DNA of 20,000 nucleotides. Source: an uncultured virus (IMG/VR IMGVR_UViG_3300010355_000481). Its lineage: Duplodnaviria > Heunggongvirae > Uroviricota > Caudoviricetes > Crassvirales. The translations under genes and the position numbers were made by a program. The notes beneath the pieces are model-generated. The model was not told the origin of the DNA. It made no database searches and saw nothing but the letters and a program-made list of their open reading frames with translations. This document shows positions 3,414 to 19,331 of the stretch, piece by piece. Positions within the stretch are counted from its first letter, which is position 1; the number at the start of each line of letters is the position of its first letter. The stretch lies in IMG/VR virus record IMGVR_UViG_3300010355_000481; one strand, written 5' to 3'.

Positions 3414-3707
3414 ATGTATAGACCAAGTTATATCGAACCTGATAATATGAAATTATTAGGTTTTGACCTGTTAAAAGACAAAGATGGATATCTTAAATAC
3501 CAAAATGACGGTACCAAACATTATAATCCAGATTATAATTCAGAATATCCAGAACCAAAAGGTAAAGTTCTTATATATGTAAACACTACATACACTAAAA
3601 ATACATTTTATCTTAGTATACGTCAAGATGGCGATACCCGTAATTCTTACACTGGTATATGTCCGTCTGAAGAATTTTTTATCCAATTATTAAATAATAT
3701 AAGGTAA
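3414..3707 (+). CDS. hypothetical protein
   Basis: 97-aa ORF with A-rich leader. Confidence 0.75.
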   Translation: MYRPSYIEPDNMKLLGFDLLKDKDGYLKYQNDGTKHYNPDYNSEYPEPKGKVLIYVNTTYTKNTFYLSIRQDGDTRNSYTGICPSEEFFIQLLNNIR

Positions 3708-3883
3708 TGGAAAATATTCAAAATACTTTAAGGATAAGCATATTAAAACAATCTGATCGTAAAGCATGTGAAACTCTATTTAAAATGAGTGATACATATT
3801 ATCGAGAAAAAATTAAAAGAATACTTAGATCTCACCATATACCAATTTTACAACGTCAAATCGTCAATAAAAATCATTATTAA
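3707..3883 (+). CDS. mini-protein (58 aa, MENIQNTLR...)
   Basis: Translated by hand; TAATG overlap with the upstream gene. Confidence 0.6.
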   Translation: MENIQNTLRISILKQSDRKACETLFKMSDTYYREKIKRILRSHHIPILQRQIVNKNHY

Positions 3884-4684: not shown

Positions 4685-4858
4685 ATGAAAAATCTTAATT
4701 ACAATATTTGGAATAATAAATTTTATACTGATATATCCGATGTCGATATAGATATTGATGACTATATTGATAGAAAATTATGGATGACAGTACTTCAATT
4801 AACTAGAGAAAATATTAGTCTCCCCGTATCCCAAAACTTAAAAAATGAAAAACATTAA
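4685..4858 (+). CDS. mini-protein (57 aa, MKNLNYNIW...NEKH)
   Basis: Translated by hand; 14-nt overlap with the next ORF. Confidence 0.65.
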   Translation: MKNLNYNIWNNKFYTDISDVDIDIDDYIDRKLWMTVLQLTRENISLPVSQNLKNEKH

Positions 4859-7050: not shown

Positions 7051-7288
7051 ATGAAACAATTAAGGTATACAATATACACAACAAAAGCTAATGCTATTAT
7101 ACGTAGTGGTTTAGGTAACGGTTTCCATGAAAGACAAGTTTTTTATCATTATAAAAAAAGAAACAGGAGTTAGTAATATATTTTCACTTATGAGAACTAT
7201 TTTATTTAATGAATTCTCAAAAAAGACAACTACGTATAAACACGAATTTACGTTACAAACCAAACCTCAAGTAAAAATAGTACTATGA
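7051..7288 (+). pseudogene. frameshifted paralog of ORF 7285-7515
   Basis: Frame stops at 7171. Removing one A from the A7 run (7153-7159) gives 78 aa ending YKHEFTLQTKPQVKIVL, versus YKHQFSLQTKEQVKIVL in the next gene. Confidence 0.7.
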
Positions 7289-7515
7289 AACAAACAAAAA
7301 TCCATATAGAATTACTTAAACTTGTACGAATTGTTTATGATTTTACTCAAGTAAGTTTTAAGATTAAATTATTAGCTTTTCAACAAGATAGTTCTTTACT
7401 TATTGTTAATGATATAATGGATGGAATTGTCAACAATGAATGTGAATTAATTGATAATAAGTACAAACACCAGTTTAGTTTACAAACTAAAGAACAGGTA
7501 AAAATCGTATTGTAG
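7285..7515 (+). CDS. small protein (76 aa)
   Basis: ORF track; C-terminus paralogous to the upstream frameshifted copy. Confidence 0.75.
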   Translation: MKQTKIHIELLKLVRIVYDFTQVSFKIKLLAFQQDSSLLIVNDIMDGIVNNECELIDNKYKHQFSLQTKEQVKIVL

Positions 7516-7516
7516 T

Positions 7517-7699
7517 ATGAAAGATATAAAACACCGTATTTATACTAATACGGCAGGAAACATTATTGATGGATTATACCTTATTTGTAATCCTAAAACA
7601 AATTGGGTAATCTGGAACAGATTAGATAGTTATATATGGGTACATATTTACTTTGAAATCAAACAAAATATATTATCACTAATTATTACTAATAGATGA
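7517..7699 (+). CDS. mini-protein (60 aa) with period-4 hydrophobic pattern
   Basis: Residues 4, 8 ... 56 are I,I,T,I,L,C,T,I,L,I,I,I,I,I. Confidence 0.7.
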   Translation: MKDIKHRIYTNTAGNIIDGLYLICNPKTNWVIWNRLDSYIWVHIYFEIKQNILSLIITNR

Positions 7700-7878
7700 G
7701 ATACACTAGTCGAACTATATATGAATTTACGTCAGGAAAGCTTGACCATACTACCGAAAGTGTATTTATTACAAATGTAAGTTGGATGCTTACTTCAACC
7801 ATAAAAACACCATTATGGAGTAGATTAATTACTCTCGTATACATCAATATTTGGCTAAACGTAAAAAATAATATATGA
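7696..7878 (+). CDS. mini-protein (60 aa) with period-4 pattern; paralog of 7517
   Basis: Residues 4, 8 ... 60 are T,I,T,L,T,F,V,L,I,L,L,V,I,V,I; ATGA overlaps. Confidence 0.7.
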   Translation: MRYTSRTIYEFTSGKLDHTTESVFITNVSWMLTSTIKTPLWSRLITLVYINIWLNVKNNI

Positions 7879-8048
7879 AATATATTCGCGTTTATTTAAA
7901 AACAAATACGAAAGAAAGGGTCAATATTGATCATATTTCAGGGTCAATATCAACATATATATGGAGATATGTCGACTATCAATTACATGGTCCACTAACA
8001 TTCCAAATTTTACGTTCAATCTCTTTAACAATTAAAACAAATATATGA
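7875..8048 (+). CDS. mini-protein (57 aa, MKYIRVYLK...)
   Basis: Translated by hand; ATGA overlaps at both ends. Confidence 0.65.
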   Translation: MKYIRVYLKTNTKERVNIDHISGSISTYIWRYVDYQLHGPLTFQILRSISLTIKTNI

Positions 8049-8443
8049 AAAGAAGAAATATCATATTAGGCAGTTTAACTGTCCTATTTATCGTAGGATT
8101 ATTAATCCTTAACCCATTAGCTTCGACAAAAAAACAAATAGTAACTATTTATACGCCAAATGATATCTATTATTTGGATGTAAATACAAATATAGTAACA
8201 TCAGAATCAGGAAAGAAAACTATGTCATGTAAGACTTTAGAAGAAGCTTCGGCATTCTTAAAGATAATCACAGCACATGATGCTAATCAACCTGCCGGAT
8301 GTGTATATAATGATGTAGATGCTATTATCGGAACCCTTAACGGGGATAGAGAAATAGATTCCGTCGTACATCAGTATATTCATTTATACAACATCACCGA
8401 TTCAACACTTATTCGCGAAATTTTAAACCGATATTATTTATGA
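8045..8443 (+). CDS. hypothetical membrane-anchored or exported protein
   Basis: Basic N-terminus followed by a hydrophobic helix; 132 aa. Confidence 0.75.
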   Translation: MKRRNIILGSLTVLFIVGLLILNPLASTKKQIVTIYTPNDIYYLDVNTNIVTSESGKKTMSCKTLEEASAFLKIITAHDANQPAGCVYNDVDAIIGTLNGDREIDSVVHQYIHLYNITDSTLIREILNRYYL

Positions 8444-8718
8444 TACACGATTTCTTTAAATTTATCTTTTATTTTATAGGGTTAGCTCCTATAATGTGGG
8501 AACTTAATGTAATTGCTGAACCTTTAAAAGCTAGAAAATTTATAAAAGCTATGGAAAATATACCATACGAAGATCGTACAGATAATCAAAAGAATTTAAC
8601 TTGGTGTTTAAGTTTGTATATTATTTGGGTATTTATCGTGTTATTATTCATACTTTTAAATACTTATCATTTTAAAATTAATATTTTCGAAGACTTAAAA
8701 TCTTTATTATGGGGTTAG
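8440..8718 (+). CDS. hypothetical membrane protein
   Basis: 92 aa with two hydrophobic segments. Confidence 0.7.
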   Translation: MIHDFFKFIFYFIGLAPIMWELNVIAEPLKARKFIKAMENIPYEDRTDNQKNLTWCLSLYIIWVFIVLLFILLNTYHFKINIFEDLKSLLWG

Positions 8719-8825
8719 AAGATATAGAGACCATTATTGCTTATATAGTTGGTTTTCTTGCTATAGCAGTATTAGTAATTATAATGATACCGTTAGATGA
8801 TGATGGACCAGACGTATATTGTTAA
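8709..8825 (+). CDS. small single-TM protein (38 aa)
   Basis: Translated by hand: MGLEDIETIIAYIVGFLAIAVLVIIMIPLDDDGPDVYC. Confidence 0.55.
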   Translation: MGLEDIETIIAYIVGFLAIAVLVIIMIPLDDDGPDVYC

Positions 8826-8838
8826 AACAAATTAGATT

Positions 8839-9111
8839 ATGATCGAATTATCAGACTTAGAAGCATGGTGTATTATAAATAGCGCTGACGTAGTTACAAG
8901 CGTCATCAACGATATTACAGAAGATCAATACAGAGATCTTATGGGTATTATTAATTTAAGTTTTCAGCTTAGATACAATCTTAAGCCTTTTCATGATATG
9001 AAAGAGGTTTATCAACATAAATTTGAAGATGTAGATGCAGCAAGAGAGTTAATCCTTGAATGTCTAGCTGACTTCTTAAATTCAATTAATTTCACACTTA
9101 AAAACAGATAA
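8839..9111 (+). CDS. hypothetical protein
   Basis: 90-aa ORF. Confidence 0.7.
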   Translation: MIELSDLEAWCIINSADVVTSVINDITEDQYRDLMGIINLSFQLRYNLKPFHDMKEVYQHKFEDVDAARELILECLADFLNSINFTLKNR

Positions 9112-9112
9112 A

Positions 9113-9427
9113 ATGTTAAATTTATTTATTATTACAATTGCAGCATTCTTATATTTATATGCAGGAATGTACTATACTATCTTTATAGATGGAGACCCTG
9201 ACGTATTTAACTTTAAACGCTTTTCTTTAGATTTTGAAGAAGATTCTCCAAACTATACAATTATACTAGGTTATATATTAATGTATGTATTTTTAGTATT
9301 TTGGTTACCGATAACATTAATATGTTTAATTTTAGAAATTTGTAGTTATAAAACCTATAAACGTGATCGTAGCCTTTATTTTAATACTTTAAAAGCTTAC
9401 TTACCATGGACGAAAAACGAAAACTAG
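9113..9427 (+). CDS. hypothetical membrane protein
   Basis: 104 aa with two TM-like segments. Confidence 0.7.
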   Translation: MLNLFIITIAAFLYLYAGMYYTIFIDGDPDVFNFKRFSLDFEEDSPNYTIILGYILMYVFLVFWLPITLICLILEICSYKTYKRDRSLYFNTLKAYLPWTKNEN

Positions 9428-9804
9428 CTTACGAGCTATTGTTGCCTTATTTTATTGACCCAGCTATTTGCGGAAGACACAATGGTTTATGTTCTTATTA
9501 TACTCCCGACGGACGTACATGTATAGCAGGAAAATGTATGATTGATCCTCAAAAATTTGCAAATTCTTCTGATCCTATCAGAAAGATTATAGAAATATAC
9601 GGGCAAATAGGTACTTTTAAACCTGATATTGTAGATAAATTTACCAACGATGAATGGAGAGGTCTTCAAAATATCCATGACGCTATAGCTACAACTGCTT
9701 TAATTTATGATAATTCTATATTTAATACAAAAGAGTTTAAAATGTATTGTGTAGAGAATAATCATACTATATACCATTCTGTTAAATTCTATGAAGACTG
9801 TTGA
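9406..9804 (+). CDS. hypothetical Cys/His-motif phage protein
   Basis: CSYYTPDGRTCIAGKC...LQNIHD, a possible metal site. Confidence 0.7.
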   Translation: MDEKRKLAYELLLPYFIDPAICGRHNGLCSYYTPDGRTCIAGKCMIDPQKFANSSDPIRKIIEIYGQIGTFKPDIVDKFTNDEWRGLQNIHDAIATTALIYDNSIFNTKEFKMYCVENNHTIYHSVKFYEDC

Positions 9805-9976
9805 TATAGAAAAATCTATCTGGCGAGGTAATTATATTCATGATAAAAATGTACGTCAGCCCGGTGGTAATACAATTTATCATATCTTGGATTATGTGCA
9901 CGATAAATTATGGAAACCTATGGAATTTTATAATATAAGTAGTTCTGTTGCAAATTCTTTTAATAAATCACTATGA
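9791..9976 (+). CDS. mini-protein (61 aa)
   Basis: ORF track; shares RxxYxHD and KLW with the ORF at 9973. Confidence 0.65.
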   Translation: MKTVDIEKSIWRGNYIHDKNVRQPGGNTIYHILDYVHDKLWKPMEFYNISSSVANSFNKSL

Positions 9977-10152
9977 ATTATATAGACATAGATTTGTTAC
10001 ATAGCAGAGCTACATATTTACATGATAGTAGTGATAATATATTATTTCCAGGAAGTGCAGATATATGGTCTACCACATATCATATTTGGCGTAAATTATG
10101 GTCTGGACGTCTTACTAAAAGATTTGTAAATCAAATAAACTATCATATATGA
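9973..10152 (+). CDS. mini-protein (59 aa, MNYIDIDLL...)
   Basis: Translated by hand; ATGA overlaps; similar to both neighbours. Confidence 0.65.
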   Translation: MNYIDIDLLHSRATYLHDSSDNILFPGSADIWSTTYHIWRKLWSGRLTKRFVNQINYHI

Positions 10153-10340
10153 ATTATACATATATTTCGCTAGTAAGCGATAGATACAAAGTTTTTAAAG
10201 GGGTTCCTTATAATATAATATATCCGGCAGAATCTAAACCTAATTCAGATGTTAACCGTATATGGAAGGTATTATGGAGTCCTCATCAATTTCACAGATT
10301 AATAATATTAATAACAAATGCGACAATTAAAGGGAGATAA
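10149..10340 (+). CDS. mini-protein (63 aa)
   Basis: ORF track; NIIYP...IWKVLWS matches NILFP...IWRKLWS of the ORF at 9973. Confidence 0.65.
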   Translation: MNYTYISLVSDRYKVFKGVPYNIIYPAESKPNSDVNRIWKVLWSPHQFHRLIILITNATIKGR

Positions 10341-10515
10341 AGATTTACTTTACCGAGTATACATCAATCATTTTGTTGATTTAAGTGAACCTGAGTTTTA
10401 TAGAACTTCACCTGCTTTTATACATGCTAATGTAACATTATGGTATAATTTTCAATCTTATTATTCATTTGTCAGAACTGTATTATACAATGAAAATTAT
10501 GAAACAACTGCATAA
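10318..10515 (+). CDS. mini-protein (65 aa)
   Basis: ORF track; overlaps both neighbours. Confidence 0.6.
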   Translation: MRQLKGDKDLLYRVYINHFVDLSEPEFYRTSPAFIHANVTLWYNFQSYYSFVRTVLYNENYETTA

Positions 10516-11047
10516 ACAATTAGAATGGTTACGATCTGGATGTATGGGATGTATGTTTGGTACTGTAATGGCTAAAGATCCTGAAAAAATTGGTTGGCAT
10601 TTTCAAGTCAACCCTAAAAATATCCTGTTTGCCGACGGATGTTGTATTTTATCTTGTATATTCCCTGAATCTGATGCCCGTGGCGTTCTTGCCTGGGCAT
10701 TAGATAATGGGTTCTTTATCGAAGAACTCGGGGATTATATAGGTTTACGATACCGTATCGGTGACAATATTGCTTGGGTGCAGTATTTTGGCCCAGACAG
10801 CCATGTTGCTACTCGACAATCACCTTATCCTATGCTTACATTCACCGTAGCATTACCTAGTGAATATTACTATAAAGTAGGCTTTACTGGTATACTTCAT
10901 TTGGCGCATGCTTCGGTGAAAGCTATAGGACTTAAAGCGAGGAATTTATTATGGGATCGTTCCCATAAATCTTCTCGTAAAATTATCGGACACGAATTAG
11001 GTTTAGCTGAATCTGCTAAAGTTACTTTTATCAAACAAAACGTATGA
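10490..11047 (+). CDS. hypothetical enzyme-like protein with a CxxC motif (start 10490 or 10499)
   Basis: About 185-aa ORF; SGCMGCMFG and FGPDSHVATRQSP motifs. Confidence 0.75.
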   Translation: MKIMKQLHKQLEWLRSGCMGCMFGTVMAKDPEKIGWHFQVNPKNILFADGCCILSCIFPESDARGVLAWALDNGFFIEELGDYIGLRYRIGDNIAWVQYFGPDSHVATRQSPYPMLTFTVALPSEYYYKVGFTGILHLAHASVKAIGLKARNLLWDRSHKSSRKIIGHELGLAESAKVTFIKQNV

Positions 11048-11238
11048 AAAAAGTAAAGGGTCAAATTAAAAATCAAGTTTGGGAGGGAGTTTGGGAGGGA
11101 GTTTGGGATCAAATTAAGGATCAAGCCAAAGGACATATTAGTGATCAAATTTGGTATCAAACTAAAAATCAAGTTTGGGGTGAACGTTGGGGCCAAGTTT
11201 GGAATCAATTTACCTCAATTAAACAAAACATATCATGA
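11044..11238 (+). CDS. QVWx tetrapeptide-repeat mini-protein (64 aa)
   Basis: KNQVWEGVWEGVWDQIKDQ...QVWGERWGQVWNQ; 12-bp DNA repeat GTTTGGGAGGGA. Confidence 0.8.
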   Translation: MKKVKGQIKNQVWEGVWEGVWDQIKDQAKGHISDQIWYQTKNQVWGERWGQVWNQFTSIKQNIS

Positions 11239-11387
11239 ATCAACTTAAAATTTCTTTTTGGATGGATAGTCATTATCTTTTATATACTGATCTTAGTCGA
11301 AATTTAGTAAAAAATCTTGAACGTGATTTAGCAATATCGATAAATAGAAAAATGAGAATTGATTATGGAAACTTTAAACCTTTATAA
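11235..11387 (+). CDS. mini-protein (50 aa, MNQLKISFW...)
   Basis: Translated by hand; ATGA overlap. Confidence 0.6.
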   Translation: MNQLKISFWMDSHYLLYTDLSRNLVKNLERDLAISINRKMRIDYGNFKPL

Positions 11388-11389
11388 GT

Positions 11390-11557
11390 ATGAAAAACGT
11401 TAAACAGAAAATCAATATAACGACGTTCGACTTATTTTATTATTCTAAACTAAACGTCAAACGTGATCTTAGCGAAGATATTATCCCAAAATTAAGAACG
11501 TATATTTACTTTTGGGCAAATAGTAATGTATCACATCCTATACAAGATAATCTATGA
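11390..11557 (+). CDS. mini-protein (55 aa, MKNVKQKIN...)
   Basis: Translated by hand; ATGA overlap with 11554. Confidence 0.6.
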   Translation: MKNVKQKINITTFDLFYYSKLNVKRDLSEDIIPKLRTYIYFWANSNVSHPIQDNL

Positions 11558-11739
11558 AATACTGTTATAAACACCATGAATGTCTTAATAATTTTAAATA
11601 TTATCTAGGCTCTGAGATTGTTCTTTGGGTATCATCTATTCAAATAACAGATTTTTTGTGGAAAAATAGACAATACGTAGAAGATCAAACTTACGTCAAA
11701 ATAATAACACCTATACGAAATGGTACAAAAAAATCATAA
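11554..11739 (+). CDS. mini-protein (61 aa)
   Basis: ORF track. Confidence 0.6.
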   Translation: MKYCYKHHECLNNFKYYLGSEIVLWVSSIQITDFLWKNRQYVEDQTYVKIITPIRNGTKKS

Positions 11740-11896
11740 AATTTTATATCAGATATATAAAACAACTCGAGACATTTGTGAAATAAATACAGATTGTGTT
11801 GAAGTAGGTATTAATAATCGTATTTTTTTCAGAACTTGGAGAACAATTAGCACACAAACTTTCCCATTCCACACTACTTTAAAAAGTAATTTATGA
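11720..11896 (+). CDS. mini-protein (58 aa, MVQKNHKIL...)
   Basis: Translated by hand; IFFRTW..I.TQT resembles IWRKTW..LIEQT of the next ORF. Confidence 0.6.
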   Translation: MVQKNHKILYQIYKTTRDICEINTDCVEVGINNRIFFRTWRTISTQTFPFHTTLKSNL

Positions 11897-12060
11897 GACA
11901 AATAACTGATAATTATATACGTATAGCTACTGAACATAAAGCCGAACTTTGTCTTGCAAATAATGTAAAAAGAGAAGTAGATCATGATATTTGGCGTAAA
12001 ACTTGGTTTTTATTAATAGAACAAACACGCATTTTATTAACTGTAAATCAAAATTTATGA
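11893..12060 (+). CDS. mini-protein (55 aa, MRQITDNYI...)
   Basis: Translated by hand; ATGA overlaps at both ends. Confidence 0.6.
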   Translation: MRQITDNYIRIATEHKAELCLANNVKREVDHDIWRKTWFLLIEQTRILLTVNQNL

Positions 12061-12242
12061 AAAAGATTAAAATACGTGATTTTATTTTGGAAAAAGTTCG
12101 TATACCTGCTGGAGATATAATTAGAAGCTGTATAGGTCCTACTAAATTCATGTTATATTCAACTAATATTAGAGATATAGTATATGATCGAACTAGTGAT
12201 ATTACTATCCTTGTAAAACTTAATCTATTAGCCCCATTATAA
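12057..12242 (+). CDS. mini-protein (61 aa, MKKIKIRDF...)
   Basis: ATGA-coupled start at 12057 preferred over the track start at 12003. Confidence 0.65.
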   Translation: MKKIKIRDFILEKVRIPAGDIIRSCIGPTKFMLYSTNIRDIVYDRTSDITILVKLNLLAPL

Positions 12243-12285
12243 GTAACTACTACAAATATTTATTCACCAATCTTAAAAATTATAT

Positions 12286-12387
12286 ATGACAGAAAAGATC
12301 CTTTTAATTGGGCAAGCGTTACCATATAATACGTATCTTTGTAAAAAAAGATCACATGGTATTATTAGAAGAATGGAAAGAAATTAA
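12286..12387 (+). pseudogene. truncated duplicate of the 5' end of the UDG-like gene
   Basis: MTEKILLIGQA versus MTEKILIIGQS at 12843; stops after 33 codons. Confidence 0.7.
12334..12341 (+). promoter_or_regulatory. Bacteroidota -7 promoter element for the HNH gene
   Basis: TATCTTTG 14 nt upstream of the ATG at 12356; no canonical -33 TTTG. Confidence 0.5.
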
Positions 12388-12850
12388 AAATTGTAATGGT
12401 AATTATTTAATTAGCAATTTTGGTAAGGTAAAATCAGTACGTAATAATTTAATTTTAAAAACAAGTCTAGATAAAGATGGATACAATAGATTAAGCTTAC
12501 GTAATAAAAATAAACCTATTTATTGTAGAATTAGTAAATTAGTTGCTACTTATTTTGTCCCTAACCCTGATAATTTGACTATAGTTAATCATATAGATAA
12601 TACAAGAAATAATGATATTTTTACTAATTTGGAATGGGTCTCTGTTAGAGAAAATACTTGTCACGGTATAAAATTAAATAAAAAATTACCAATAGGCGTA
12701 TCAAAAAGACCTAAACAAAATAAATATCGAGCAAGAATTGAAATTAATCGTAAATCAATTTCTTTAGGAGATTTTAATACTCCTGAAGAAGCATCTGAAG
12801 CTTATAAAAAAGCTTTACAAACCTATAAAATCAAAAACAAATATGACTGA
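12356..12850 (+). CDS. NUMOD4-HNH-AP2 homing endonuclease
   Basis: EEWKEIK...YLISNFGKVKS (NUMOD4); VNHIDNTRNNDIFTNLEWVSVREN (HNH); GVSKR...YRARI...LGDFNTPEEASEAY (AP2); ATG at 12356 preferred. Confidence 0.9.
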   Translation: MVLLEEWKEIKNCNGNYLISNFGKVKSVRNNLILKTSLDKDGYNRLSLRNKNKPIYCRISKLVATYFVPNPDNLTIVNHIDNTRNNDIFTNLEWVSVRENTCHGIKLNKKLPIGVSKRPKQNKYRARIEINRKSISLGDFNTPEEASEAYKKALQTYKIKNKYD

Positions 12851-13283
12851 AAAAATTTTAATTATTGGGCAAAGTCCCCCAAGCCCTGACGTCGTACAAA
12901 AAGTACCGTATGACACTACGATGTTATATGAAATGCTTTCTTGGGTAGGTATATCTAAAGATCAGGCTCAAAATTTGTTTGAATTTGAAGCTTTGACAGA
13001 TGTATTTCCAGGATATGCTAAGATGAGTGGCCACAAAGTTCCTTCTTCCGAAGCTAAAGCAATATATTGGGATTCAACCCTTAAAGATAAAATAGCTAAT
13101 CATAGTCGTATTATCTTATTAGGCCGAGAATCTCAAAAGTACGTAGAAAAGCGTTGGCCGGAAAAATATAACGATAAAAACACTTTATGTCTTATCCATC
13201 CAAGTATTCGAAACAGCGGAAAGATCAAAGAACATAAAGAAATTATTACTAACCTTTTAAAAACCTTTATATGGGACTCTTAA
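12843..13283 (+). CDS. uracil-DNA glycosylase superfamily protein
   Basis: ILIIGQSP (motif A), IILLG and LIHPS (motif B). Confidence 0.75.
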   Translation: MTEKILIIGQSPPSPDVVQKVPYDTTMLYEMLSWVGISKDQAQNLFEFEALTDVFPGYAKMSGHKVPSSEAKAIYWDSTLKDKIANHSRIILLGRESQKYVEKRWPEKYNDKNTLCLIHPSIRNSGKIKEHKEIITNLLKTFIWDS

Positions 13284-13543
13284 GCAATTTATTGTTTGGT
13301 AAACCCAGACAAGGATATCCTTTAAAACCAATAGTGGCTACATGTCCTCGCCAAATATCCGAAACATCATTCAATGAATGGGTTAAGGAATTCAAAGTAG
13401 GCTCATTATTTAATCACGAAGAATCACACGAAACATGCGAAAGACTGAAGATTTTAAAATTCCAGCGAGGACTTTTAAAGAAGGAGCTAAGTCATATACT
13501 CACAAACCCTCCCAAAAGTATCTTGACAGAAGGGCAGAGTTAG
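13271..13543 (+). CDS. hypothetical protein
   Basis: 90-aa ORF; its 3' part overlaps another ORF. Confidence 0.55.
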   Translation: MGLLSNLLFGKPRQGYPLKPIVATCPRQISETSFNEWVKEFKVGSLFNHEESHETCERLKILKFQRGLLKKELSHILTNPPKSILTEGQS

Positions 13544-13605
13544 CTTTACAAGAAGCTCGTATCGAAGAACGACGAAAAGCCAGATCATTTAGTGAAAAAG
13601 GTTAA
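13435..13605 (+). CDS. small basic protein (56 aa, MRKTEDFKIP...)
   Basis: Translated by hand; fills the gap to 13592 but overlaps the upstream ORF by 109 nt. Confidence 0.5.
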   Translation: MRKTEDFKIPARTFKEGAKSYTHKPSQKYLDRRAELALQEARIEERRKARSFSEKG

Positions 13606-13759
13606 TGCTATATATCTATGCAATATAGTTATCAATGGTTGTTCTAAATTAATAAGACCTAATAAAATTATAAGATTAATTAGGTCTCAAATATTTATCG
13701 ATCAGTATGGGATTTACGTAGATATTGTATTAAATAGACAGTATGAATCAAGTTCGTAG
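13592..13759 (+). CDS. mini-protein (55 aa, GTG start, MKKVNAIYL...)
   Basis: Translated by hand; overlaps both neighbours. Confidence 0.5.
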   Translation: MKKVNAIYLCNIVINGCSKLIRPNKIIRLIRSQIFIDQYGIYVDIVLNRQYESSS

Positions 13760-13937
13760 AAAAGTTTCTTTTATAAGTAACCGTATTACTAAACAAGGTT
13801 TTTCATCAACTGAATTATATAGTGTAGAGTGGGATCTAAGGATAAAAGTATATCGACATACTTCAATTATTTTAGAAGATGTTATAAAAATTCCTACTTC
13901 GATAATTAAATTTAATACTCATGCGATCAGTCGTTAA
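13743..13937 (+). CDS. mini-protein (64 aa)
   Basis: ORF track. Confidence 0.6.
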   Translation: MNQVRRKVSFISNRITKQGFSSTELYSVEWDLRIKVYRHTSIILEDVIKIPTSIIKFNTHAISR

Positions 13938-14067
13938 AAAACTTGATATACCTATAATTAGAATAACAGTAGGTACAGTAAGTTCAGATGTTTTAATGGA
14001 AGGAGCTACATATATGAATATTTTCTCTATAAGGGTTAAACGTGATATTTTAAATAACTCAATATGA
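13921..14067 (+). CDS. mini-protein (48 aa, MRSVVKKLD...)
   Basis: Translated by hand; ATGA overlap with the RNase H gene. Confidence 0.55.
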   Translation: MRSVVKKLDIPIIRITVGTVSSDVLMEGATYMNIFSIRVKRDILNNSI

Positions 14068-14714
14068 TCGAAATATATACTGACGGAGGTTGTGTTGGTA
14101 ATGGAAAACCTGAAGCAATCGGTGCTTATGCATTTATTGTTGTAAAAGATGGTGAAATTATCTATGAGGAGGCGGTCCGAATAGAAGCACCATGTACAAA
14201 TAATATTGCAGAATTAACGGCTTGTATACAGGCTTTAGATTATTGCCACAATGCTCCCATCAAACCTACTAATTTCTATAGCGATTCTAACTATGTCATT
14301 CGTGGTATCAACGAATGGCTTGATGGTTGGGTTCGTAAAGATTTCCGAGTAGATGATGGATTCCGTCCAAACGCAGAATTATGGAAACAAGTTGTAACTC
14401 TCCGCCCACATTTTAGAACCCTAAATTATATTTGGGTAAAAGGACATGATGATAACATCTTTAACAATAGATGTGATGAATTATGTACTCAAGCAATGGC
14501 CTTAAAGCCAAAGACAAAAAACAATTCAAAAGCCGTTAAATTTCCCATCCCAGCCTATAAAGAAGGTTATGGAGTAGGTGAAGTCAATTTAGGCTCCAAC
14601 GATTCGTTATTTGCTTACCAATTTAGCAACGAACTCGGCATTCATGGGTTTGACAACCCAAAAAACAGTGGGATTAGTGTTTTAGTCCCTTTATCAAAAT
14701 TTATTAAATCTTAA
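14064..14714 (+). CDS. rnhA: ribonuclease HI with a C-terminal extension
   Basis: IYTDGGC, TNNIAEL, YSDSNYV, NAELW, WVKGH and NNRCDEL; the catalytic D/E/D/D residues are present. Confidence 0.95.
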   Translation: MIEIYTDGGCVGNGKPEAIGAYAFIVVKDGEIIYEEAVRIEAPCTNNIAELTACIQALDYCHNAPIKPTNFYSDSNYVIRGINEWLDGWVRKDFRVDDGFRPNAELWKQVVTLRPHFRTLNYIWVKGHDDNIFNNRCDELCTQAMALKPKTKNNSKAVKFPIPAYKEGYGVGEVNLGSNDSLFAYQFSNELGIHGFDNPKNSGISVLVPLSKFIKS

Positions 14715-14726
14715 AAATCAAAAAAA

Positions 14727-15698
14727 ATGTTAACAGAATTAACAGCACAAGACGAAGCAAGAATCATTGAAGTACGTGACAAGTATTTAGCGAAGCTATT
14801 TAACTACGTATTATTGGAGAAATTTGACGCAGAAAAAATGAAAGCTGCCGTAAATGATTTGTATGCTTTTGCAAATCTTCCTTTACCAAAGGATATTATT
14901 ATTGCAGACAGCCCTAAAGCTGCCCAAAAAATCTGTAACGATTACAATCGTACATACAACAACGATCCATCTTTACCTGATCAAACTTGGGAATTTGCAA
15001 TTACAGGAGACGTATCAGATTACAACTGGTTATCTTTTTATGAATTCTTCATGCCGATGGAAGGTATCTTAACGGACGAAGCAAAAACAAACTTACAACG
15101 TATCATCGATATCGTAGATACAGGTATTTTTACTAGTATCCAATTGGAAGTATTGTGTATCCCGGTTAAAATGCCTAATTTCATTAGTCGTGATGCCGAA
15201 AACAATTTACACTGTACTAGTGGTCCAGCTATCACATTTGTTGATGGATATGGTCAATATTACATCCACGGTCGTTTCTTAGAGCAATCTTGGTTTGATA
15301 AAACTATCAATAAAACATTGACTCGCGAAGAGTACTTAGCTATTTCGAATGAAGATATCAAAGGTTGTATTAATACGATCATGGATGCTGAATTTGGCCC
15401 TCAATACTTAGCTGAGTTCTTAGGAGCTACGGAAATCAGCCGTGTAACTATAACTCACCCTACACACACAGAAGAATTAGTTTTGTTCCGTACGAAAGAA
15501 AAATTCTCTTTTGCTAGAGATAGTAAAGGTAATGAGAATGCTTCGTTAGCTTGGATTCAAATGACTTGTCCTTCAACTCAAAACATTTACATGATTTCTA
15601 CGTGTCCGACATTCGAAGATGCCCTTGAGTGTGCTAAATTTCACCGTTCAGAGTTGATTCCTAAAGATATTCCTTATATCTGGCAATCTGCTTCTTAG
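14727..15698 (+). CDS. DUF6745-like protein
   Basis: N-terminal LTxxDExRIxxxRDKY, DSP, WLSFYEFF, RDAENNLHCTSGPAITFVDGYGQYYIHG, ISNEDIK and CPST. Confidence 0.7.
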   Translation: MLTELTAQDEARIIEVRDKYLAKLFNYVLLEKFDAEKMKAAVNDLYAFANLPLPKDIIIADSPKAAQKICNDYNRTYNNDPSLPDQTWEFAITGDVSDYNWLSFYEFFMPMEGILTDEAKTNLQRIIDIVDTGIFTSIQLEVLCIPVKMPNFISRDAENNLHCTSGPAITFVDGYGQYYIHGRFLEQSWFDKTINKTLTREEYLAISNEDIKGCINTIMDAEFGPQYLAEFLGATEISRVTITHPTHTEELVLFRTKEKFSFARDSKGNENASLAWIQMTCPSTQNIYMISTCPTFEDALECAKFHRSELIPKDIPYIWQSAS

Positions 15699-15706
15699 TA
15701 GAAAAA

Positions 15707-15738
15707 TTTGTAAATATCATATAAGTAACCTACCTTTA
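15707..15738 (+). promoter_or_regulatory. near-consensus Bacteroidota promoter
   Basis: TTTG, 20-nt spacer, TACCTTTA (one mismatch), upstream of 15777. Confidence 0.45.
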
Positions 15739-15776
15739 CTTAACAAAATAAAATAAAACTTTAAAAACCACTTATT

Positions 15777-16160
15777 ATGGCGAATTCAAAATTCAAATTC
15801 ACAGGAATCATGCACCGTCAAGGTGATGTACAAATTGCTCAACTTGAAAAATTACCTACCGAGGTAAAACCAATTGAGAAACAATTCTTAGCAGCGTCGG
15901 AGCGTTCAGGCTCTATGCATGCCTTATTCGGAAACTATCAACAATACGAAGTTGAGGGCGGAATCGTTCTTGATTGTAAAGAAGATTGTTTGATGAACCA
16001 CAGTTTAACCTCACACCTTCAAGGTTTAGGTATGGATCAAGTTCGTGAATTACCTAAGAAAGATCACGGCGCTATCTCTTTACCGAAAGGAGTATACTTC
16101 GTATCGATCCAACCTCGATTCGACCCAATGCAAGGCTTTAAAACACCTGTTAAAGACTAG
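15777..16160 (+). CDS. RQGDV-motif protein, probable partner of the DUF6745-like protein
   Basis: HRQGDV...LAASERSGSMH...H...DHGAISLPKGVYFVSIQ...VKD. Confidence 0.75.
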   Translation: MANSKFKFTGIMHRQGDVQIAQLEKLPTEVKPIEKQFLAASERSGSMHALFGNYQQYEVEGGIVLDCKEDCLMNHSLTSHLQGLGMDQVRELPKKDHGAISLPKGVYFVSIQPRFDPMQGFKTPVKD

Positions 16161-16182
16161 TATTTATTTAAGATTAAATTAT

Positions 16183-16217
16183 ATCCCCTCTGGCTAACTG
16201 CTGGAGGGGATTTTTTT
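16183..16217 (+). terminator. intrinsic terminator
   Basis: ATCCCCTCTGGC-TAACT-GCTGGAGGGGA followed by T7. Confidence 0.85.
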
Positions 16218-16376
16218 ATGAAAAATATCAGTAAACACACACATCGTTTAATAGGGTTTGAATTTTGGATTAACTTTAATGTTATGATCAATAACACAGT
16301 TGAAGTTGATATAAGAAAGTACTGTTGGAGTATTATCAGTGAACCTTTAATATTAAGAAATTATGAGAAACATTGA
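16218..16376 (+). CDS. mini-protein (52 aa, MKNISKHTH...NYEKH)
   Basis: Translated by hand. Confidence 0.6.
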   Translation: MKNISKHTHRLIGFEFWINFNVMINNTVEVDIRKYCWSIISEPLILRNYEKH

Positions 16377-16527
16377 AATTACCGGAATTAAACTTGCTAG
16401 ATTACATAGTTCATTAATAACAAGAGTCTATCCTAATGTTTCATCTTTAATATATAACATAATTCATCGAACTTTATCTAGAGTAGCTCCAAGAAATATA
16501 GTTCAAACTATGATAAATAATATATGA
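16363..16527 (+). CDS. mini-protein (54 aa, MRNIEITGI...)
   Basis: Translated by hand; overlaps both neighbours. Confidence 0.6.
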   Translation: MRNIEITGIKLARLHSSLITRVYPNVSSLIYNIIHRTLSRVAPRNIVQTMINNI

Positions 16528-16709
16528 AAAATATCAATGAAGAATTGTGTTTTACAGTTCAAAATCCTTTTTACCATATACATGACCAAAATAGAGCGAT
16601 AACAGTGTCTAATCTCGTATGGGAACATGTAATAGACATTAATGAGGTATTAATCCCTGACGAAACCATTATAAACCGTATAAAACTAGTCAATTATGAA
16701 AAGCATTAG
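16524..16709 (+). CDS. mini-protein (61 aa)
   Basis: ORF track. Confidence 0.65.
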   Translation: MKNINEELCFTVQNPFYHIHDQNRAITVSNLVWEHVIDINEVLIPDETIINRIKLVNYEKH

Positions 16710-16893
16710 ATTAGATATACGACAGTCTCATCATCTTTATTGGGAAAATATAGTAGAGAAAAGTAATCCTTATTTTAGAAAAAATAAGTTTAAAAAATAC
16801 AAAAATACCAAAGTAAAGAGATTCTTTTTTATGAGATCTTTAGTTGATTTTGAGAATATTAAACGATGGATCGAAACAAACTATGCGCAGTAA
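16696..16893 (+). CDS. mini-protein (65 aa)
   Basis: ORF track. Confidence 0.6.
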   Translation: MKSIRLDIRQSHHLYWENIVEKSNPYFRKNKFKKYKNTKVKRFFFMRSLVDFENIKRWIETNYAQ

Positions 16894-17074
16894 ACACGGA
16901 CATATAGGAAATTTTATATCCCCGCTTTGGGACCAATTAGGAAATGGAACATACCTTTTCCACCACAATTACCCTATACTTAAGTTAAAAAATTTAAGGG
17001 TAATTTTTATAGACGCTGGATTTGACTTCCTTTTTACAGTCGAACTAGTTGATTACAAATTAATAAATAATTAA
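16883..17074 (+). CDS. mini-protein (63 aa, MRSKHGHIG...)
   Basis: ATG at 16883 preferred over the track start at 16844. Confidence 0.6.
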   Translation: MRSKHGHIGNFISPLWDQLGNGTYLFHHNYPILKLKNLRVIFIDAGFDFLFTVELVDYKLINN

Positions 17075-18039: not shown

Positions 18040-18230
18040 ATACAATTACACATTTATTATATTCTACGATACGTAGGTTTCAAATAAATGCAAACTTATA
18101 TGATCAACTAAGTATGTCGGTAGACCAATACGTAGATAAATTATTATGGGGATCTTTAAGTAACGCCAACACTGTATTTAATTATAAAGCACATATGAAA
18201 CAAATTACTAGACATGATGAAATACGTTGA
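18036..18230 (+). CDS. mini-protein (64 aa)
   Basis: ORF track. Confidence 0.65.
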   Translation: MNTITHLLYSTIRRFQINANLYDQLSMSVDQYVDKLLWGSLSNANTVFNYKAHMKQITRHDEIR

Positions 18231-18405
18231 TCACCGTATAAACCCTTTATTAAGACGATATCGTCTTAATGTTTGTATAGAACCTCAAGAAGTCACTTCA
18301 GAAATTGTACTTCACGCATTAAGTGAGTTAAATAACTGGTCAAATAAATTTTTTGGTTACGCACCTATAATTAGACAAATTGTTAATAATTATGAGATAC
18401 ATTGA
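18214..18405 (+). CDS. mini-protein (63 aa), paralog of 18392
   Basis: MKYVD...ELNNWS...RQI. Confidence 0.7.
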   Translation: MMKYVDHRINPLLRRYRLNVCIEPQEVTSEIVLHALSELNNWSNKFFGYAPIIRQIVNNYEIH

Positions 18406-18580
18406 TGAATTTATAGCAATCCCATTATCAAAATATTGGGGTAGTACTTTTAAAGAAACTCCTACAGTCCAAAATAATATTCAAATTCGTATAGCAAGAG
18501 AATTAAATACTTGGTCAGATATGTATTTTATTAATTATGAACTCACCCTTAAACAAATATTAGATGAATGGAGTAACTAG
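18392..18580 (+). CDS. mini-protein (62 aa, MRYIDEFIA...)
   Basis: ATG at 18392; MRYID...ELNTWS...KQI. Confidence 0.7.
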   Translation: MRYIDEFIAIPLSKYWGSTFKETPTVQNNIQIRIARELNTWSDMYFINYELTLKQILDEWSN

Positions 18581-18728
18581 AATAATTTGGGAACCATTAC
18601 GTAAAGAATTTTATAATTTTTTACAAACTGAAAAACCTGATCCTAAAATTTATCGTATGATATTTCAACCCTTAAATGAAATATCAACTTGGCATTTAAA
18701 CTCATTAGATAGCTATGAAACAAATTAA
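18564..18728 (+). CDS. mini-protein (54 aa, MNGVTRIIWEPL...)
   Basis: Translated by hand; similar to the next two ORFs. Confidence 0.65.
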   Translation: MNGVTRIIWEPLRKEFYNFLQTEKPDPKIYRMIFQPLNEISTWHLNSLDSYETN

Positions 18729-18873
18729 AAAAATAATGTGGTTACCTTTGTACGAGCTATTTTACAGTAAAATAATGTATCGAAATCGTAACAATACAGT
18801 CTATCAAATATTATTTGAAGACTTAATGGATGAAGTAAATTTTTTTGATTTTAATAACGATAATTTAGAATGA
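18715..18873 (+). CDS. mini-protein (52 aa, MKQIKKIMWLPL...)
   Basis: Translated by hand. Confidence 0.65.
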   Translation: MKQIKKIMWLPLYELFYSKIMYRNRNNTVYQILFEDLMDEVNFFDFNNDNLE

Positions 18874-19037
18874 AACAAGTTAACGGCATAATATGGGCTC
18901 CATGGAGCCCGAATTATTATAGAAGTTCATTTTGGTTTAAATTAAAGCTTAATTATGATCTTCCTCATGATATATTATATGATAAATTAGAAGACGAAAT
19001 AAGTTTTACCCAAGTAGAAATATTAAACCTATTATAA
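18870..19037 (+). CDS. mini-protein (55 aa, MKQVNGIIWAPW...)
   Basis: Translated by hand; ATGA overlap. Confidence 0.65.
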   Translation: MKQVNGIIWAPWSPNYYRSSFWFKLKLNYDLPHDILYDKLEDEISFTQVEILNLL

Positions 19038-19061: not shown

Positions 19062-19331
19062 ATGAATGATAAACCATTAGATCGCGATTATGAGCACGCA
19101 ATTAGAGAGATTGAAAGTGTCTCTGAAGTGTTAACCTCTCTAAAAGAAAAAATTGAAGCATTAGAAGAGGAAAATGAAACTCTCGAAGATAAACTATCCA
19201 CCAGAGATAATCAAATCTCCAAATTAGAGGAAGAAATTAAAGAACTTGAAGAAAAACGTGATAACTTAGACGCCAAAGTAAACAATCTTGAAATTGAATT
19301 ACAAGATTGGCAATTAGGGAATAATTCCTAA
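19062..19331 (+). CDS. acidic coiled-coil protein
   Basis: 89 aa with a continuous heptad pattern (LKEKIEALEEENETLEDKL...). Confidence 0.8.
   Translation: MNDKPLDRDYEHAIREIESVSEVLTSLKEKIEALEEENETLEDKLSTRDNQISKLEEEIKELEEKRDNLDAKVNNLEIELQDWQLGNNS

Follow-up and report, generated by a model that had tools for sequence, protein, structure and literature searches.

We identified, in a 20,000-nucleotide stretch of an uncultured wastewater virus placed in the Crassvirales (IMG/VR record IMGVR_UViG_3300010355_000481; the whole stretch is called the window here), a DUF6745-like gene that lacks the internal tetrapeptide tract of many of its relatives, a neighbouring gene for a protein with an HxQGDVQ motif (the partner), and a free-standing mini-gene, 11044-11238, built of such tetrapeptides (tetrads). 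That 11044 and the repeat-less DUF6745-like gene are linked in evolution is well supported: across related loci we observed homology, an insertion site for the repeat, a complementary distribution of internal and free-standing repeats, matching repeat dialects and decayed repeat skeletons. The explanation that we tentatively place first, while granting it a little less than even confidence, is that a repeat-less member of the DUF6745 superfamily and its partner serve as a core for which detached tetrad genes supply exchangeable modules; the functional side of this reading, a split system with modules of that kind, is plausible by analogy. Only a minority of the surrounding small open reading frames (mini-ORFs) is tied to the repeat, and the other roughly 45 are without a demonstrated part. 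The suggestion of a first-pass annotation that the system would be undescribed agrees with the literature searched, in which no paper mentions 'DUF6745' or 'PF20530', no function is published for the family, and no paper joins tetrapeptide repeat, phage and hypervariable.

The three open reading frames (ORFs) at 14727-15698, 15777-16160 and 11044-11238 stand as that annotation had described them. The 323-residue product of the first reads ...IIADSPKAAQKICNDYNRTYNNDPSLPDQTWEFAITGDVSDYNWLSFYEFF... and carries no internal tract after its DSP motif (tract = 0 by a period-4 identity detector); DSPKAAQ and WLSFYEFF are separated only by a non-repetitive linker of 25-30 residues. Its assignment to DUF6745 held up in part. 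The protein's own match to Pfam DUF6745 (PF20530) has an E-value of 0.01 and 15.6 bits, covers residues 147-210 only and does not reach the gathering cut-off of 27 bits, so it is not a strict Pfam member; because this match is weak, the family label rests on transitive evidence. A search profile made from the protein and four homologues retrieved 3923 cluster representatives at E<=1e-3 from 1.84 billion proteins, and when 30 of the best 150 representatives were scanned, 21 matched DUF6745 at E<=0.01 (10 of them with >=27 bits) and nine gave no match. Look-alikes in the ESM Atlas provide an independent line of homology to accepted DUF6745 members, with a feature score of 0.97 and structural template-modelling (TM) scores of 0.56-0.68 to clusters in which 81-93% of the members carry PF20530. 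Judged by its sequence, the protein is best described as DUF6745-like, that is, as a divergent and repeat-less relative that falls below the family threshold. It is 26-40% identical to the viral relatives found and has in common with tract-bearing ones the motifs DSP, W-SFY-FF, DGYGQYY-GR and CPST. An AlphaFold2 (AF2) model built from a 43-row alignment has a predicted local distance difference test (pLDDT) value of 93.7 and places residues 63-77 in a helix and 78-95 in a loop. A second kind of repeat module on a DUF6745 core is seen in cyanobacterial proteins of ~682 residues (an Atlas cluster), in which DUF6745 is fused to leucine-rich repeats.

The partner bears H-R-Q-G-D-V-Q at residues 13-19. 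Its 22 homologues are 52-99% identical to it, and G16, D17, E42, H48 and H97 are invariant in a 30-sequence alignment. The annotation's statement that DUF6745 proteins are often encoded beside an RQGDV-motif protein proved sound: of 49 DUF6745 clusters, 37 contain a copy according to a hidden Markov model (HMM) of the partner, in most cases immediately 3' of the DUF6745 gene. The AF2 model of the window's partner is all-beta (pLDDT 86.9), and the window carries the same pair, a small all-beta H-x-G-D protein beside a DUF6745 gene. A Pfam scan of the partner gave no match, PDB sequence profiles gave none for either core protein, and Foldseek of both models against the PDB found nothing at E<=0.001 (E > 0.1). 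The best VIA-align scores were below a meaningful level and were discarded, namely Z 4.8 for the DUF6745-like model (a beta-propeller blade-like piece, residues 234-314) and Z 3.8 for the partner (a tie of Mis18 Yippee-like domain, Nup133, astrovirus spike and cereblon). The Atlas gives PF31129, a newer Pfam family absent from the release scanned here, for a structural neighbour of the partner. Two terminator-like sites only are present in 10300-16500, and one of them closes the DUF6745/partner unit (Table 1).

The tract itself was also described in the first-pass annotation as lying just after the DSP motif, and this is borne out in many homologues, both by alignment and by the AF2 helix/loop site described above. 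A strict period-4 tract occurs in 37 of 153 top representatives, a lower bound given the strict threshold. Viral contigs have the tract immediately after DSPxA, ahead of the W-SFY-FF helix, at a site that corresponds to roughly residues 65-90 of the window protein; it is 60-200 residues long in the homologues aligned with that protein and spans 40-234 residues across 35 repeat-bearing clusters. Every repeat-less protein aligned retains one x-Q-V/I unit at this site, and we infer that the tract is an expansion of the helix following the DSP motif. Each tetrad has two fixed and two free positions, with x-[D/N]-Q-V in the window's branch and the dialects x-S-Q-L, x-S-E-L, x-x-N-V and x-x-S-V in others. 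A different kind of multiplication is present in L072, where a tandem array of 12 short ORFs (98-157 residues; 8528-13702), all matching the DUF6745 core HMM, looks as though a fragment of the central DGYGQYY region had been multiplied.

The tetrads missing from the window's DUF6745-like protein are found in the product of 11044, which consists of 14 tetrads of the form [W/K/S]-x-Q-[V/I] in register from the start codon, followed by a short cap. Its period-4 hydrophobic power reaches z = 10.3, a value attained by none of 500 shuffles. In blastp searches 11044 gave 130 matches in 32 loci. The best was to L052, within the tract of its DUF6745 gene (45% over 53 residues, E 4.8e-11), and was also found with the SEG low-complexity filter on; in a shuffle control 0/200 exceeded 28 bits, as against 51 bits for the real sequence. 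The product is a start-anchored tetrad array in the dialect of related internal tracts, and its gene lies near a DUF6745 gene without a tract. The mini-gene starts within the stop of ORF 10469-11047 (ATGA) and ends where the next gene starts. Within the window nothing pointed to a diversity-generating retroelement: no template repeat was found, the 11044 repeat does not recur elsewhere in the 20 kb and has only internal 12-nt periodicity, and none of the ORFs scanned (10 with Pfam, 27 with PHROGs) codes for a reverse transcriptase. That the 12-nt periodicity instead works at the DNA level, as an array of protein-binding sites or a recombination hotspot for example, with an incidental ORF, would fit the fact that all six frames are open over clean tracts in relatives and that a 103-residue ORF lies on the strand opposite 11044. 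We consider this highly improbable, given that the ATG of the plus-strand frame overlaps the upstream stop and the frame ends at the next gene's start, that the tetrads keep start-codon register in the window and the listed relatives, that codons for the fixed Q and V/I alternate with variable codons, and that in relatives the tetrad unit lies within the DUF6745 reading frame.

The first-pass annotation had further proposed that repeat-less DUF6745 genes go together with free-standing repeat genes. Three scans of viral contigs yielded 103 loci (cited by L numbers), which were reduced to one per contig and, for the first 74, to one per 90%-identity cluster; 12 new contigs of the last scan were checked for near-identity, and L033, L071, L072, L074 and L097 were set aside as truncated, with the tract site missing. 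A free-standing tetrad ORF, counted on the same strand within 6-10 kb per side, was present in 14 of 19 complete repeat-less clusters versus 2 of 35 repeat-bearing ones (Fisher P-value 3.3e-7, kinship ignored). On reading, the two repeat-bearing exceptions (L067 and L073) turned out to be hydrophobic or acidic low-complexity ORFs and not tetrads, and with both removed the P-value is 3.6e-9. Two of the five repeat-less clusters without a clean copy hold degenerate arrays: in L060, 10 of 36 mini-ORFs have a period-4 signal, and in L090 approximately 14 chained mini-ORFs with faint x-x-E-L remnants (7654-9901) lie between the repeat-less DUF6745 gene and the partner, in the slot that clean tetrad genes fill in L045.

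On a tree of the core from which the tracts were removed, tract state changes at least six times, and free-standing tetrad genes recur in at least five separate repeat-less lineages. Near the pair in tract-less lineages these genes encode 45-125 residues. Furthermore, their dialects match those of the internal tracts: x-S-Q-L/x-S-E-L mini-genes fall in the clade with x-S-Q-L internal tracts, and x-N-Q-V mini-genes, 11044 included, fall in the clade with x-[D/N]-Q-V internal tracts. The mini-genes occupy several positions relative to the pair. The order is DUF6745, one 123-residue NQV mini-gene, partner in L022; DUF6745, 17 mini-genes, partner in L045; and partner, DUF6745, four mini-genes in L063. 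A mini-gene stands on either side of the pair in L024, and mini-genes follow directly 3' of the partner in L092, L096 and L098.

These arrangements bear on a competing explanation, according to which tetrad peptides act alone in both fused and free form, decoys or inhibitors of host proteins being examples; DUF6745 would then be only one carrier of several, the free mini-proteins would not have to touch the DUF6745/partner core, and the complementary pattern would reflect dosage or redundancy. It would account for the position of 11044, which lies 3.5 kb from the pair and is translationally coupled to the unrelated 10469-11047 (phrog_34888), for the repeat-less L047, L048 and L103, which have no mini-genes nearby, for the tetrapeptide tract that gp54 of mycobacteriophage Tweety carries on unrelated flanking domains, and for the different repeat module, leucine-rich repeats, of the cyanobacterial DUF6745 proteins. 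We nevertheless judge independent action to be somewhat unlikely, since arrays of mini-genes lie between or beside DUF6745 and partner in L022, L024, L045, L063, L090, L092 and L096, and since the dialects follow the DUF6745 tree.

The pair is surrounded by many mini-ORFs, as the first-pass annotation had noted: 55 non-nested plus-strand ORFs encode 40-110 residues. Its further inference, that many such mini-proteins serve as the variable module, was not supported as stated, most of the mini-ORFs showing no link to the repeat. A period-4 hydrophobic signal at shuffle P-value <=0.01 was obtained for nine of the 55 (3707, 4685, 7696, 7875, 8440, 9791, 11044, 16363 and 18564; 0.55 expected), and a further two, 7517 and 11554, reached <=0.05. 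When tetrads are counted from the start codon, a hydrophobic residue occupies position 4 in 3707, 4685, 7517, 7696, 11044 and 18564, with occupancies of 73% in 7517 and 80% in 7696; 7875, 4845 and 16363 begin in this register and then shift, 7875 by one. The mini-ORFs 3707, 4685, 7517, 7696, 7875, 16363 and 18564 have the period-4 skeleton and no other feature of tetrad genes. The ORF 8440-8718 was not counted as a tetrad gene in spite of its signal, because it looks like a hydrophobic membrane protein. We read about seven or eight mini-ORFs beyond 11044 as probable decayed tetrad genes that keep one hydrophobic residue per four. Clean tetrad genes aside, a period-4 signal at <=0.01 marks 85 of 442 mini-ORFs (19%) in repeat-less loci versus 10 of 589 (1.7%) in repeat-bearing ones, the share in the window being 7 of 55. 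In addition, the array at 16218-17074 sits where other phages have tetrad mini-genes (L092, L096 and L098, directly after the partner).

All-versus-all BLAST of the window's mini-ORFs links only 7127/7285, 7517/7696, 9973/10149, 18214/18380 and 18564/18715/18870, as well as 4685 with 11893 and 11390. Since neighbours are detectable paralogues (E 3e-8 to 7e-5 in 7127-7515, 9973-10340, 18214-18580 and 18564-19037), blocks of mini-ORFs appear to grow by local tandem duplication. The ...NEKH end of 4685-4858 overlies the MKNI start of the next gene, YEKH/MKNI-type junctions recur at 16362 and 16696, and the caps MKNI... and ...YEKH with the junction TATGARAAACAT occur in the window (16362 and 19899) and in the clean L045 array. 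As a sign of common descent, caps and junctions were given little weight, because this A-rich start context is found before unrelated larger genes as well.

Natural variants were available for comparison, as 24 runs, drawn from 18 studies of wastewater, activated sludge and digesters, contain parts of 10400-16300; four of the runs were compared as contigs. None of the runs on record for the stretch is an established RNA data set, and two are presumed to be RNA by guess only. In run X3, a 5.7-kb contig includes both DUF6745 and partner, shows 60 differences in 2246 bases and lacks exactly the HNH endonuclease gene (joint 12306 to 12864, 557 nt skipped); as it is exactly absent from this related strain, 12308-12850 is a mobile gene inserted between the block of mini-ORFs and the uracil-DNA-glycosylase-like gene. 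A contig of run X6 lacks the mini-ORF 11390-11557 (joint 11386 to 11575), and 22 other letters restart the next ORF, a cassette-like gain or loss of a single mini-gene. The compared contigs therefore document gene-cassette turnover among mini-ORFs and, in the rows listed, give no sign of a change in the repeat number of 11044.

A second competing explanation holds that the link is historical only, 11044 being the decaying remnant of a tract lost from the DUF6745 gene and the mini-ORFs ordinary, fast-evolving ORFans of the early region of a large phage, functionally unconnected with the pair. Most mini-ORFs indeed have neither a homologue in 73 related loci nor a tetrad signal (besides 11044, only 3707-3883 has a homologue there, a single weak one); Tandem Repeats Finder detects just two runs of 2.8 copies in 11044 at the DNA level, and the repeat is therefore old; and the absence of 11390-11557 from a related strain is typical cassette turnover. 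Even so, the reading frame of 11044 is intact, with a start-anchored register that is perfect over 14 tetrads, contigs of other runs carry the gene unchanged or almost so, free-standing tetrad genes recur in the separate repeat-less lineages counted above, and the period-4 excess is missing from control loci (1.7%). We therefore regard a purely historical link as improbable.

Several observations weigh against a core with detached, exchangeable tetrad modules. The repeat-less lineages L047, L048 and L103 have no mini-genes within about 10 kb, and tract state provides only four (50 rows) or five (60 rows) independent pairs on well-supported branches of the core tree. In these pairs the mini-gene trait changes in the same direction in 2.6 and 3.5 cases on average and in the opposite direction in 0.1 and 0.0, and the kinship-corrected sign test has a median P-value of 0.25 (four pairs) and 0.125 (five pairs); with only four to five independent pairs it cannot reach significance. 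The proposed association of repeat-less DUF6745 with free-standing repeat genes thus stands in the raw counts and in the matching dialects and loses significance after correction for kinship: it is real in raw counts and consistent in direction, and its independence from kinship is not yet demonstrated. Within the window, 11044 sits 3.5 kb upstream of the pair, with ~14 ORFs in between, including the mobile HNH endonuclease gene, and outside the slot used by mini-genes in L022, L045 and L063; BLAST joins it to no other mini-ORF of the window, and no homologue of it was found among proteins of 35-112 residues. About 45 of the 55 mini-ORFs lack a tetrad signal, and most of the period-4 excess is contributed by the clade of the window itself (L049, 16/53; L050, 31/49; L059, 10/39; L060, 10/36). 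Common N- and C-caps and junctions may reflect only A-rich translation start signals. In contigs from four other runs 11044 shows no sign of hypervariability: among the rows listed, no insertion or deletion lies inside it in records 2, 15 and 24, contigs being prone to drop rare variants. Neither core protein has a known fold by Foldseek, VIA-align or PDB profiles. Finally, Tweety gp54, the studied protein of most similar build, is not homologous, and its flanking domains do not match ours (no Pfam match; probability 0.2% by hhalign against the 323-residue family profile).

With these reservations, the exchangeable-module reading may be sketched as a mechanism. The DUF6745-like gene and its partner are the last two genes before the terminator-like hairpin. 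In most relatives the helix after DSP is expanded into a hypervariable tetrad tract, and in tract-less lineages free-standing genes near the pair encode the same tetrads, here 11044-11238. The mini-proteins may be helical rods, each tetrad presenting two variable residues, and are predicted to be exchangeable target-binding modules, which would act together with the DUF6745/partner core and probably dock on it. By analogy with Tweety gp54, the whole set might act in early phage-host conflict. A bolder version, which we consider unlikely, is that several phage lineages turned the hypervariable DUF6745 helix into a library of mini-genes plugging into a constant core, and that diverging mini-genes lose the repeat and keep the period-4 skeleton, which would make the tetrapeptide repeat a birthplace of ORFans. 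Early regions of phages are full of tiny genes of unclear origin; if the proposal is true, some of them come from a repeat-based segment detached from a two-protein core, which would amount to a modular recognition system without a retroelement and to a testable route from repeats to new small proteins.

Table 1. Coordinates of the features discussed, in window positions.
Feature	Positions	Strand	Remarks
Repeat-less DUF6745-like gene, putative constant core	14727..15698	+	323 aa; profile and Atlas links
HxQGDVQ partner gene	15777..16160	+	127 aa; starts 78 nt downstream of DUF6745-like gene
Terminator-like hairpin and T-run closing the DUF6745/partner unit	16183..16218 (hairpin 16183-16211)	+	12-pair stem, 7 G-C pairs, then TTTTTTT
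Free-standing tetrapeptide-repeat mini-gene	11044..11238	+	64 aa, 14 tetrads x-x-Q-V/I
Three chained mini-ORFs, degenerate tetrad skeleton	7517-7699, 7696-7878, 7875-8048	+	period-4 p = 0.014, 0.000, 0.008
Candidate mini-ORF, start-anchored period-4 skeleton	3707..3883	+	p = 0.004
Candidate mini-ORF, start-anchored period-4 skeleton	4685..4858	+	p = 0.008; 71% hydrophobic at position 4
Candidate mini-ORF, period-4 signal, register not start-anchored	9791..9976	+	p = 0.004
Array of five chained mini-ORFs	16218..17074	+	7 nt after terminator-like site; 16363-16527 period-4 p = 0.002
Candidate mini-ORF, start-anchored period-4 skeleton	18564..18728	+	p = 0.002; 62% hydrophobic at position 4; first of three paralogues
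phrog_34888 protein	10469-11047		
HNH/NUMOD4/AP2 homing endonuclease	12308-12850		
Small uracil-DNA-glycosylase-family protein	12843-13283		
RNase H	14064-14714		
Membrane protein and phrog_200 protein	farther upstream		

The window is AT-rich (27-36% G+C) and is laid out as a nearly continuous plus-strand chain of small ORFs with frequently overlapping stops and starts; its recognisable genes are phage-like (Table 1). No Shine-Dalgarno sequence is visible before the starts at 175, 803, 5009, 9113, 12843, 14727, 15777 and others, whereas an A-rich CTTAAAAAC-like motif lies ~8-15 nt ahead of many start codons, which are often ATGAAA. This combination hints at a host with Shine-Dalgarno-independent initiation, such as one of the Bacteroidota. 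Among the mini-ORFs, 19062-19331 encodes an 89-residue coiled coil, unrelated to the tetrads, whose heptad (3.5-residue) periodicity is very strong (z = 9.6). Megablast of 12000-17000 against 50,697 deposited phage records gave no match, and in tblastn of the phage collection the 323-residue protein had one weak match only and the 127-residue partner none. A profile search of genome contigs with the 323-residue profile found no relative, and a metagenome scan returned a single 100% identical stretch (L075) only, so there was no close relative to compare by locus.

The closest known relatives of the window's system are the tract-bearing DUF6745 proteins of phages and prophages, such as those encoded in L027, L052 and L015. 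They resemble the window protein in the homologous N-terminal helical and C-terminal parts and likewise have an HxQGDVQ neighbour; they differ in that the window's tetrads are encoded apart, at 11044, with no internal tract. Among proteins that have been studied, Tweety gp54 has a central tract of 40-48 A-A-x-x tetrads between unique ends, in which third codon positions are invariant and coding positions vary, and excerpts of the published description add that the protein is non-essential and that repeat numbers differ in Che8 (gp57) and PMC (gp51) (PMC2884959). It shares with the window's tetrads a repeat with two fixed and two variable positions that is rich in W, G, Y and S. Its unit is A-A-x-x, its tract is always internal, and the excerpts describe neither free-standing repeat genes nor an HxQGDVQ partner. 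The same source names as a parallel variable region 2 of bbp36 of Bordetella phage BMP-1, an in-frame, variable-number repeat in a non-essential gene, which differs in its 24-bp unit and, by the paper's description, is unrelated in sequence (PMC2884959). Tweety gp54 is the nearest studied analogue, by build and not by descent. In mutants that escape the Phrann gp29/gp30 prophage defence, gp54 has an altered number of repeats (PMC9262239, as excerpted), and the only studied protein of similar build is one that tunes escape from bacterial defence.

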